DNA of 53,209 nt, filler included, from Sluysia triapertura (lineage: Eukaryota), in NCBI GenBank assembly GCA_046118255.1. It is 4 parts of 4 records of this genome, joined end to end, with 100 filler letters (N's around TTAATTAATTAA, not from the genome) between each part and the next. Parts side by side here need not be neighbours in the genome. Positions count along the whole stretch, not along the records: positions 42,070 to 53,209 come from JBJNIA010188376.1; 3 more parts are not named here. One strand, 5' to 3'. The position numbers and the translations under genes were made by a program. Below the pieces are notes generated by a model. The model was not told where the DNA came from, searched no databases, and saw only the letters and a list, made by a program, of their open reading frames with translations. The first letter of the stretch is position 1. Each line of letters begins with the position of its first letter. Shown here one piece after another: positions 43,814-45,758 of this stretch.

Positions 43814-44910
43814 AATGTCGAACTCCAGGCAAGCTTCACCTAGAAGAGTAAGATTTGATAATGATAAGAATGAAGGACAAATAAATTGCAACTATGGTAA
43901 GGAGTATGAGGATTACGAATATAAAAGACACCAGAGAAGATTAACAGAAGAAAAAGAGATGCTGAGAGAGTTCCGCAGAGCTAAAATGGACAATAATGAG
44001 AATAAGGAAGAAAGAAAACAACCTAGAAGTAAACATGATGACGAAGAAGATATGTTCATTAATTATTTACATAAAAATTTTATTCAGCTTTTAAAAGAAA
44101 AAGAAAAAGAAGATAAAAGGAAAAAAGAAAGCACAATTGGCGGAAGAGCAGCGAAAACCTAAAATTAGCTAAAAGTGCTTAACAACTCGAAGAAGAAAGA
44201 AAATACGCCGAATCAATTATAAACAGATGGAAAAAGGATAACGGTATAATAGATGAGAAAGAGGAAGAAGATAAGAAATTAATATTATCAATTAATGTAG
44301 AAGTTGATTTTTTTCTGATCTAGAAGAAGAAATAATTAGTTTATTCGATCAGGAGGAATCTAGTAACGACACACTTTCAGATTTTGGGCCAATAATTACT
44401 TCGGTTAATGAAAATGATACACCAGTTAAGGAGTTAGGAGCCAACATTAAAGGTAGGGTTAGATATATTTCTCTCGGAATTGACAGAAAGCAAAAAAATT
44501 TCTAAACTGAATTTAGATATGTTTAATAAACAAAGTATAAGGTCAAATTTGCTTTATTTAGGTCAGGTAGATAGCCTACATAGTTTTAAAGCAAGACAGT
44601 TTTTAAGAAAAATAGGTTTAACTGAAAGAACATTAATACATTAATGAAAATAAATGTATTACTTGATGAATTAGTAAATATTTTTATGGAATTACCAGTT
44701 ATTATAGTAATAGAAGATATGATAGATTTGATTAAGTTAAATGATCTGACAATGGTAGATGTAAAATTACATTTCTTTAATAGATACTTGGAACCCAGAA
44801 AATTTCTAGTTGATTATCCCAAAACTCAAATTAATGATGAAAAAATAAATAGTAAAGTTAATGAAAGATGTTGACGTACGAATAATTGAAAATAGTATGG
44901 GAGTTGATAC

Positions 44911-45067
44911 TGTTAGACTTCGTAAAATGGACTGACCGTGTATCGAACCTGGGACCATCGCTGTGCAGATCGATTGCTCTACCACTGAGCTATCAGCCCC
45001 TTCTAACGATTTTATTTTATTATAGTCAATTTTACTAAATGGCACCTTAGGCCTTTTTACCCCAACA
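44911..45067 (-). mobile_element. 157-bp TGTT...AACA element with tRNA-like Pol III unit (copy 2), 4-bp TSD ATAC
   Basis: ATAC(44907-44910)|TGTTAG...CCCAACA|ATAC(45068-45071). Homologous to 1642-1802. Confidence 0.88.
44928..44999 (-). pseudogene. 72-nt tRNA-like sequence, Ala(TGC)/Cys(GCA)-like
   Basis: GGGCTGA TA GCTCAGTGGTAGAGC A ATCGATCTGCACAGCGAT GGTC CCAGGTTCGATACACGG TCAGTCC A. The 7-bp acceptor stem and D arm are intact, the T stem has two mismatches, and TTTT follows immediately. Confidence 0.78.
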
Positions 45068-45758
45068 ATACCGATGACTAATTAGAAATTAATGTTGAAA
45101 ATGATAAAATTATGAGCAACCTGATTATATAGTGAATCTTAATAAAAACCCACATACAGAAACTGTTGATAAGGAAACAAGTGCAGAAAAATGAAGGCCT
45201 GTCCGTCCAAGAAGAAGTGAAAATGACATGATGTCCTACATATTGATATCAAAAATAGATTATAGAAATGATGATGAAGTTGAAATAGATACTAAGGTAA
45301 TTTATGTGTTTTTGTCTGATAATTTTAGCAAATATAAGAAGTTATTGCCAGAAATTAAAAAGAACTATAGAGTTTCTATAAATAAGTTAGTAAAAAAATT
45401 TGAAGAAAGATATAAAAGAAAGACATTAGTGACTTTACAGACACCGGACAATATAAGATGATAATAAGTAAACAAATTAGTAAAGGAATATATAAGGAAA
45501 ATTTTAAAATAATTTTGGCATATGTTATATACCAATGTAACCAGGAGAAATTGATTAATAGAAGCAAAATAGATAAAGTTAATGATTTTGTTAAGAAAAC
45601 TAAATTATGGATTGAAGAACAAGGAGAATAGAGAAACATAATAAAGGGAAAAGAAAATCAAAAAACAGAGGAGCCGACTAACCTAATGACACAATTATTC
45701 GGCAATAATGGCAATACATTAAATACAGCTATACCAAGAATAGGAAACTCAACGAATA

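Follow-up and report, generated by a model that had tools for sequence, protein, structure and literature searches.

A Solo LTR of a Probable Helenus-Type TRIM in a Likely Flatworm Genome, with an Antisense tRNA-Trp Interior and Truncated LTR–tRNA Copies

The 157-bp unit at positions 44911–45067 (minus strand) of the window, by which we mean the whole 53,209-nt stretch of DNA analysed (four joined pieces, about 24% GC), is in all probability a solo LTR of a Helenus-type (TRIMp3) TRIM of about 407 bp. We consider it likely, with the Pol III, priming and helper steps deduced from sequence features, that this TRIM (157-bp LTR, 93-bp interior, 157-bp LTR) is transcribed by Pol III, primed by host tRNA-Trp and served by a Gypsy-type helper, and that it leaves behind dead-end products of the Ty style. 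The observations on which this reading stands are the anatomy and abundance of the family, its target site duplications (TSDs), the complementarity of its primer binding site (PBS) to tRNA-Trp, an antisense interior and a class of truncated copies lacking TSDs. The likely new host phylum for Helenus is the headline of this work, to which the mechanistic clues add value.

The LTR in the window and its family

The unit has the termini TGTT and AACA and is bordered by an exact duplication, ATAC, at 44907–44910 and 45068–45071 (neither with a strand), just as the original prediction from the sequence had described it. Read on the minus strand, it consists of an A-rich leader of 68 bp (45000–45067; put at about 70 bp in that prediction), which contains AATAAA, a tRNA-like core of 72 nt (44928–44999) with box A, box B, a paired acceptor stem and a broken anticodon arm, a TTTT run (T4) directly after the core (44924–44927), and a 13-bp LTR end (44911–44923), which in paired copies is followed by TT and then the PBS. 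In the 3′ LTRs of paired copies, the leader comes after a stretch resembling a polypurine tract (PPT). The core, read from 44999 to 44928, matched the Rfam tRNA family RF00005 at 37.9 bits (gathering threshold, 29), confirming the tRNA-like part; this was the only Rfam match in the window. ARAGORN also called a tRNA here, with the anticodon undetermined. The duplication is in keeping with the 4-bp TSDs seen throughout the family and with an empty paralogous site, found on a contig in run X1, in which position 44909 is joined to 45073 with two letters between them and the 157+4 bases are absent.

The original prediction spoke of two dispersed copies, a number that proved far too low, as the assembly (619 Mb in 263,945 contigs) contains thousands: we obtained 3,519 candidate copies of the LTR, 40 of which were scored and proved to be full or near full length with 92–100% identity. 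Among the best 30 genomic matches, 27 were solos. The tabulation of termini and TSDs that had been proposed along with the prediction gave fixed ends and, for these solos, an exact 4-bp TSD in 22 of 27 and one with a single mismatch in 3 more. The chance expectation by base composition is about 0.0095 per copy, and the TSDs around the family copies are not a matter of chance.

A search for paired copies around an interior bearing a PBS and a PPT, likewise proposed beforehand, was successful. The LTR end followed by TTTGGTGAG, the PBS, occurred at 541 exact junctions in the assembly (0 for the control), of which we sampled 90 in contig order. The usual paired form, exemplified by loci L042, L108 and L114, is an LTR, an interior (93 bp in 26 of the 44 parsed), the conserved TGAATTGGGTGAGATA and a second LTR, and full-length copies span 385–423 bp. 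TGAATTGGGTGAGATA is the commonest stretch before the 3′ LTR; as a PPT it stands in the right position but is only weakly purine-rich. Complete elements had an exact 4-bp TSD in 8 of 14 cases and lacked one in the other 6. The two LTRs of one element were 89.4% identical on average, as compared with 85.6% between elements, and the own partner LTR ranked first in 6 of 12 elements. The family thus has some age, and the two LTRs of certain elements may have been unequal from the start; the low LTR pairing and the absent TSDs call for age, recombination or inter-molecular strand transfer as an explanation. Many LTRs (at L035, L036, L059, L104 and L144, for instance) have internal deletions by which one member of a pair, and not the other, has lost part or all of the tRNA-like core. 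Solos, the window copy included, would have arisen mostly by LTR–LTR recombination.

Another member of the family lies at 1642–1802 (plus strand) on a different piece. It had been described as a diverged full-length copy; its membership holds, at 83.5% identity to the 44911–45067 unit over 127 bp, but it is damaged rather than full length, the LTR homology reaching to about 1777 and the flanks, TAAG and ATGT, forming no TSD. Where the LTR end should be, the final ~29 bp are of different sequence, with a weak likeness to an LTR start turned the other way (p about 0.01 by shuffling). At L069, an inverted stretch from the LTR start comes after an LTR with an 18-nt tRNA copy, and this junction and the tail of the 1642–1802 copy may be of the same fold-back kind. 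The bracketing of the tRNA part by TGTTAGAC...GTCTAACA, originally pieced together from the two window copies, does occur within single copies, in 22 of 79 distinct intact cassettes. We rejected the bracketed segment as a separate inner element, as its own TSD was present in none of the eight 5′-truncated copies listed. At 36835–36881 (plus strand), 47 bp weakly match the junction of the LTR leader and the tRNA part (76.6%, E 1.6e-4); this is possibly a third, very decayed LTR fragment.

Two readings of the unit as something other than an LTR were weighed against these data. In one of them, raised in the original prediction itself, it is a Ginger-type cut-and-paste MITE that captured a tRNA. 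The TGT...ACA ends, the 4-bp TSD, the inner 8-bp inverted bracket and the weakly inverted end of the 1642–1802 copy would all suit such an element, but the terminal inverted match is only 4 bp long, and the 541 LTR–PBS junctions, the direct-repeat pairs around a PBS/PPT interior and the tRNA-copied ends described below are marks of reverse transcription, leaving this reading very improbable. It is scarcely conceivable that the copies are ordinary tRNA SINEs or duplicated tRNA genes. A core with boxes A and B and a T4 run, called a tRNA by ARAGORN in 20 of 30 copies, agrees with that view; against it stand the fixed ends (AACA), the 68 bp that precede the tRNA part and the paired form. In place of the variable ends, tails and TSDs, or the TSD-less tRNA loci, that would have spoken for an origin of this sort, we found fixed ends, no tail and a uniform 4-bp TSD. 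Neither the MITE nor the SINE reading is supported, because the LTRs are paired around a PBS/PPT interior, the ends are fixed and there is no tail. The proposal that the unit is a solo LTR from a tRNA-bearing TRIM, an analogue of Cassandra, has accordingly been upheld by the paired LTRs around an interior, and the class to which it belongs has already been described as Helenus (PMC10886601).

The tRNA-like core, the Helenus class and the host

Compared with host tRNAs, the LTR core was most similar to a tRNA-Cys(GCA) in an AT-rich context (85.7% over 42 nt; 52/72 overall), with a Phe tRNA as a close runner-up. The comparison set was 63 scored out of 52,007 candidates in the assembly, many of which look bacterial or vertebrate, and we only tentatively regard the core as derived from tRNA-Cys(GCA). 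ARAGORN called a tRNA in 20 of the 30 LTR copies (16 with an undetermined anticodon, 4 as Ser) and made no call in 10, so that 26 of 30 copies have no assigned anticodon. This part of the LTR is neither a working tRNA nor the primer. In the host genome, thousands of such LTRs will inflate tRNA gene predictions.

In 27 of 30 copies, T4 comes directly after the core; in 7 full-length copies the runs in this position are the sole sense-strand T4 runs, one mutated start excepted, a pattern that comes from one family with an A-rich strand. A Pol III RNA that extends from one core to the other would agree with this pattern, and it is plausible that the tRNA part supplies the Pol III promoter. Pol III would start at the core of the 5′ LTR, pass the T4 there, which would act as a leaky terminator, and end at the T4 of the 3′ LTR. 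Given such a transcript, the tRNA-like part would be R, the last 13 bp U5 and the 68-bp leader U3.

Helenus elements (Kojima 2024) are TRIMs with a tRNA-like sequence in the LTR, a PBS and a PPT, and with 4-bp TSDs in animals; they are probably of several origins, their transcription by Pol III is likewise a prediction, and self-priming by the LTR tRNA has been rejected for them as well (PMC10886601). Apart from a clear-cut PPT and an identified helper, the TRIM studied here shares their features: it has two LTRs within less than 1000 bp of non-coding DNA (385–423 bp), tRNA-derived boxes A and B in both LTRs of paired copies, a PBS complementary to the 3′ end of a host tRNA, tRNA-Trp(CCA), a PPT-like stretch, a 4-bp TSD (in the 22 of 27 solos and 8 of 14 complete elements mentioned above) and many solos. 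We made the assignment by these features. The likeness extends to a primer of the Gypsy type, used at the tRNA 3′ end, to a short PBS match without self-priming, and to the choice of tRNA-Trp, as in Helenus-2_SyJa of a wasp (PMC10886601). It differs in that flatworms, the likely hosts here, are absent from Table 1 and from the keyword-searched supplement of that paper, and in that its available text describes neither an extended antisense-primer interior nor a truncated class of LTR plus tRNA copy (PMC10886601). A 2026 meeting report, in the part available, merely cites the class (PMC12859917). Cassandra of plants and Ajax of nemerteans are likewise TRIMs with a Pol III promoter derived from a small RNA in the LTR, and transcription of Cassandra starts in the small-RNA part of one LTR and ends in the same part of the second; in these elements, however, the small RNA is 5S rRNA and not a tRNA, and the Ajax TSDs are 5 bp long (PMC10886601).

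The identity of the host was approached through cox1. In an AT-rich cox1 (L166), AAA stands opposite Asn 6 times and Lys 0 times, ATA stands opposite Ile/Val 9 times and Met 0 times, and TGA stands opposite Trp; this gene uses mitochondrial table 9. The users of table 9 are flatworms and echinoderms. With ambiguous codons masked, the L166 product is identical to those of three vertebrate-like cox1 copies at 234 of 469 positions, and this divergence favours a flatworm. The L166 mitochondrion is linked to the nucleus carrying the TRIM by a similar GC content (0.23 and 0.24, respectively) and by a second, stop-bearing cox1 copy (L167). Judged from these comparisons, the TRIM host is likely to be a flatworm. 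The three vertebrate-like (fish-like) cox1 copies stand on different contigs (L163–L165), and with many vertebrate-like and bacterial tRNAs (L070–L097) also present, the assembly mixes several organisms.

The primer tRNA-Trp, the antisense interior and the truncated copies

A host tRNA-Trp(CCA) gene at L062:1450–1522 has an acceptor stem of the sequence expected from the PBS. The typical PBS pairs with this tRNA over 10 nt only. Past nt 18, the interior runs colinearly, with gaps, in antisense to the T arm, the variable loop and the anticodon arm of tRNA-Trp. To compare interiors with tRNAs, we dropped the 12 of the 90 sampled junctions that had less than 50 nt downstream. The antisense match past nt 18 reached p≤0.01 against 200 mononucleotide shuffles in 56 of 64 interiors, and tRNA-Trp beat the best non-Trp control tRNA in 44 of 64, the other 20 not showing this preference. 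In L064, the antisense match is exact over 39 nt and reaches position 38 (numbered from the tRNA 3′ end). Over its first ~45 nt, the interior is tRNA-Trp copied in antisense and since decayed. The base next to the L064 end point is G37, which is often methylated; the end point may mark the limit of template homology. The calculated duplex of the interior with tRNA-Trp (−58.6 kcal/mol) was far more stable than that with the LTR's own core (−26.0 kcal/mol), and self-priming, which the original prediction had entertained in suggesting that the element supplies its own primer, is therefore rejected. The primer is likely to be host tRNA-Trp rather than the tRNA of the LTR. It would anneal by the 10-nt perfect PBS and by the colinear blocks facing the T arm, the variable loop and the anticodon arm, blocks that would have arisen once, by plus-strand read-through into the primer.

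For such an extended antisense-primer interior, we found no account in the open-access literature. In the available part of the supplement to PMC10886601, the interior of a coelacanth Helenus (LTR1_LCh-I) may, as seen by eye, continue past the PBS as a decayed antisense of its primer tRNA-Lys. The antisense-tRNA interior suggests one route by which TRIM interiors originate, and it offers a testable idea about the priming and packaging of TRIMp3 elements that share no LTR with their helper.

The junctions between LTR and PBS fall into two types. Exact PBSs of the type departing from tRNA numbered 334 in the assembly, and PBSs exact to the tRNA over at least 12 nt numbered 46, with 7 more behind a mutated LTR end; 51 of these 53 tRNA-type junctions were used and 2 were dropped. 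The interior followed the junction in 65 of 72 non-tRNA-type copies, as opposed to 4 of 51 tRNA-type copies (Fisher p 1e-21). The remaining 47 of the 51 end after 12–18 nt of tRNA sequence (6 after 12 nt, 9 after 13, 18 after 14, 9 after 15, 1 after 16, 1 after 17 and 3 after 18), with a mode at 14 nt and a floor at 12 nt set by the search pattern. A TSD was found around 0 of 24 testable truncated copies, 16 of 40 having been left out as they had no traceable left end, and downstream of the truncated copies no common interior was found. Four tRNA-type junctions retain the interior (L065, L066, L247 and L231/L064), and the PBS is therefore sometimes taken from the tRNA.

By analogy with yeast elements, the truncated copies are likely to be dead-end plus-strand strong-stop DNA that was joined to the genome without normal two-ended integration. 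Plus-strand synthesis would follow the PPT-recycling route of Ty1/Ty3: the first strong-stop DNA, with 12–18 nt copied from the tRNA, would be a dead end, sometimes patched into the genome without a TSD, and a later strong-stop DNA, free of tRNA bases, would complete the element. Since the completing DNA would carry no tRNA bases, a degenerate PBS would be inherited from the RNA. According to the available part of PMC5371799, the plus-strand DNA of Ty3 is halted once 12 nt of the tRNA have been copied; this dead-end product is displaced and accumulates, and the primer does not pass its sequence on to the PBS. The TRIM resembles Ty1/Ty3, as far as that part goes, in that the PBS does not come from the primer, the first strong-stop DNA ends about 12 nt into the tRNA and the primer is bound beyond the PBS. 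The yeast findings, however, are from experiments on autonomous elements using tRNA-iMet, whereas ours are deduced from genomic fossils of a non-autonomous animal element using tRNA-Trp; the TRIM truncations also peak at 14 nt, and the extra primer contacts form one colinear antisense copy (compare PMC5371799, available part). Retroviral plus-strand synthesis is described, in the text available for PMC8599865, as stopping at m1A58 and U54 of the tRNA, and DNA that passes both positions extends into the tRNA, as in the TRIM; the same text describes HIV-1 read-through DNA of this kind as unable to integrate, whereas here one such copy seems to have been the founder of the interior. We found no account of genomic truncations of the form LTR plus tRNA copy in the open-access literature. 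The genome counts alone (65/72 vs 4/51) point to a yeast-type route in an animal element, and counting interiors by PBS type is applicable wherever the PBS of a TRIM differs from the primer.

The candidate helper and the remaining alternatives

The solo LTR in the window lies in antisense within a decayed env-bearing Gypsy-type element (plus strand, approximately 43000–51000), which has a gag zinc-knuckle-like segment, matches to PF24664 and 65–73% identity to the Gypsy loci L201–L204. The group is composed of gag, a PF24664-type glycoprotein region before pol, reverse transcriptase (RT), RNase H, integrase and a further protease-like segment, and is represented by 1,302 RT candidates in the assembly. 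In the window element and in L201–L204 alike, the fusion glycoprotein region, of the Monjiviricetes type, stands between gag and pol and not after pol. A second aspartyl-protease-like segment lies 3′ of the integrase in L098 (2686–3291, minus strand), and L203 has a protease-like segment before RT. In the window, the glycoprotein region (45744–49135) is interrupted by some 2.3 kb of other sequence with a 299-codon open frame (47084–47983), for which a Pfam search gave no match.

We regard this Gypsy as a candidate only for the helper that would copy and integrate the TRIM, leaving 4-bp duplications. Outside the TRIM, the 13-nt Trp PBS was not found in any element of the fragmented assembly: 47 of 48 sites of the motif adjoin a TRIM LTR, and the remaining one is in unrelated GC-rich DNA. 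An autonomous element bearing the TRIM LTR was sought and rejected, as the LTRs leading into long unrelated DNA turned out to be truncated junctions that have no interior in common. Direct continuation, in sense, into the env start, RT or RNase H of the Gypsy was seen in 3 of 39 truncated copies, compared with 1 of 210 control flanks (p 0.013), and a fourth, weaker chimera (L225) enters the integrase. The Gypsy PBS, TGGTG(C/T)CCAGAGTGAGG-like, differs from the Trp PBS, and no LTR or PPT likeness between Gypsy and TRIM was seen along a Gypsy walk that stopped short of its 3′ LTR and TSD.

Two further readings accept the TRIM and dispute how it replicates. According to one, which we find rather doubtful, the antisense interior is a neutral leftover of a single read-through, and the truncations come from the classical cycle, in which an 18-nt tRNA copy fails on a degenerate PBS and integrates by one end. 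The interior blocks do have deletions and mismatches relative to the tRNA, the anticodon-loop block differs from copy to copy, three of the truncations lie at exactly 18 nt, where the m1A58 stop would place them (PMC8599865, available part), and an 18-nt tRNA-exact PBS occurs in some complete elements (L065 and L066). The classical cycle, however, should convert the PBS to tRNA sequence in much of the progeny, which is at odds with 4 of 51 tRNA-type copies having an interior and 334 PBSs of the other type, and the truncations have their mode at 14 nt, not at 18. The second reading holds that the TRIM brings its own primer into the particles of a helper primed by a different tRNA, with the antisense stretch pre-binding tRNA-Trp and the env-bearing Gypsy being used. 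It draws on the three sense chimeras and L225, on the non-Gypsy left flank of the chimera L237, on the lack of any autonomous Trp-PBS element found in the assembly and on the different PBS of the Gypsy. The numbers are small, however, and two of the three chimeras begin at contig ends, without a left flank, so that they may be insertions into a genomic Gypsy copy. The Gypsy is abundant (1,302 RT candidates), the window copy itself stands in antisense in a 65–73% relative, and one copy (L045), as seen by eye, runs in antisense into the Gypsy leader. The missing LTR and PPT likeness also weighs against this reading, and collapse or decay in the assembly may hide a helper with a Trp PBS. We judge this borrowing of a helper to be unlikely. 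The same verdict of improbability applies to the more specific conjecture that the captured antisense primer copy is a hook that pre-loads tRNA-Trp, with dead-end DNAs preserved and some of them switched onto the cDNA of a Gypsy with another primer. A hook of this kind could let the TRIM ride in that Gypsy's particles; if true, the family would be an animal fossil record of Ty-style PPT recycling, and the helper of a TRIMp3 element could be read from chimeras. The reading that we prefer remains a Pol III-transcribed, tRNA-Trp-primed TRIM with a Gypsy-type helper and Ty-style dead ends.

The other joined pieces of the window contain ordinary host genes, one with an exon of Piezo (TM1-24) at 37089–37598 (plus strand) and another with a PH-domain exon at 3102–3509 (minus strand). 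An 80-bp repeat with 97.5% identity occurs in opposite orientations on two pieces, at 4998–5077 and 34600–34679.
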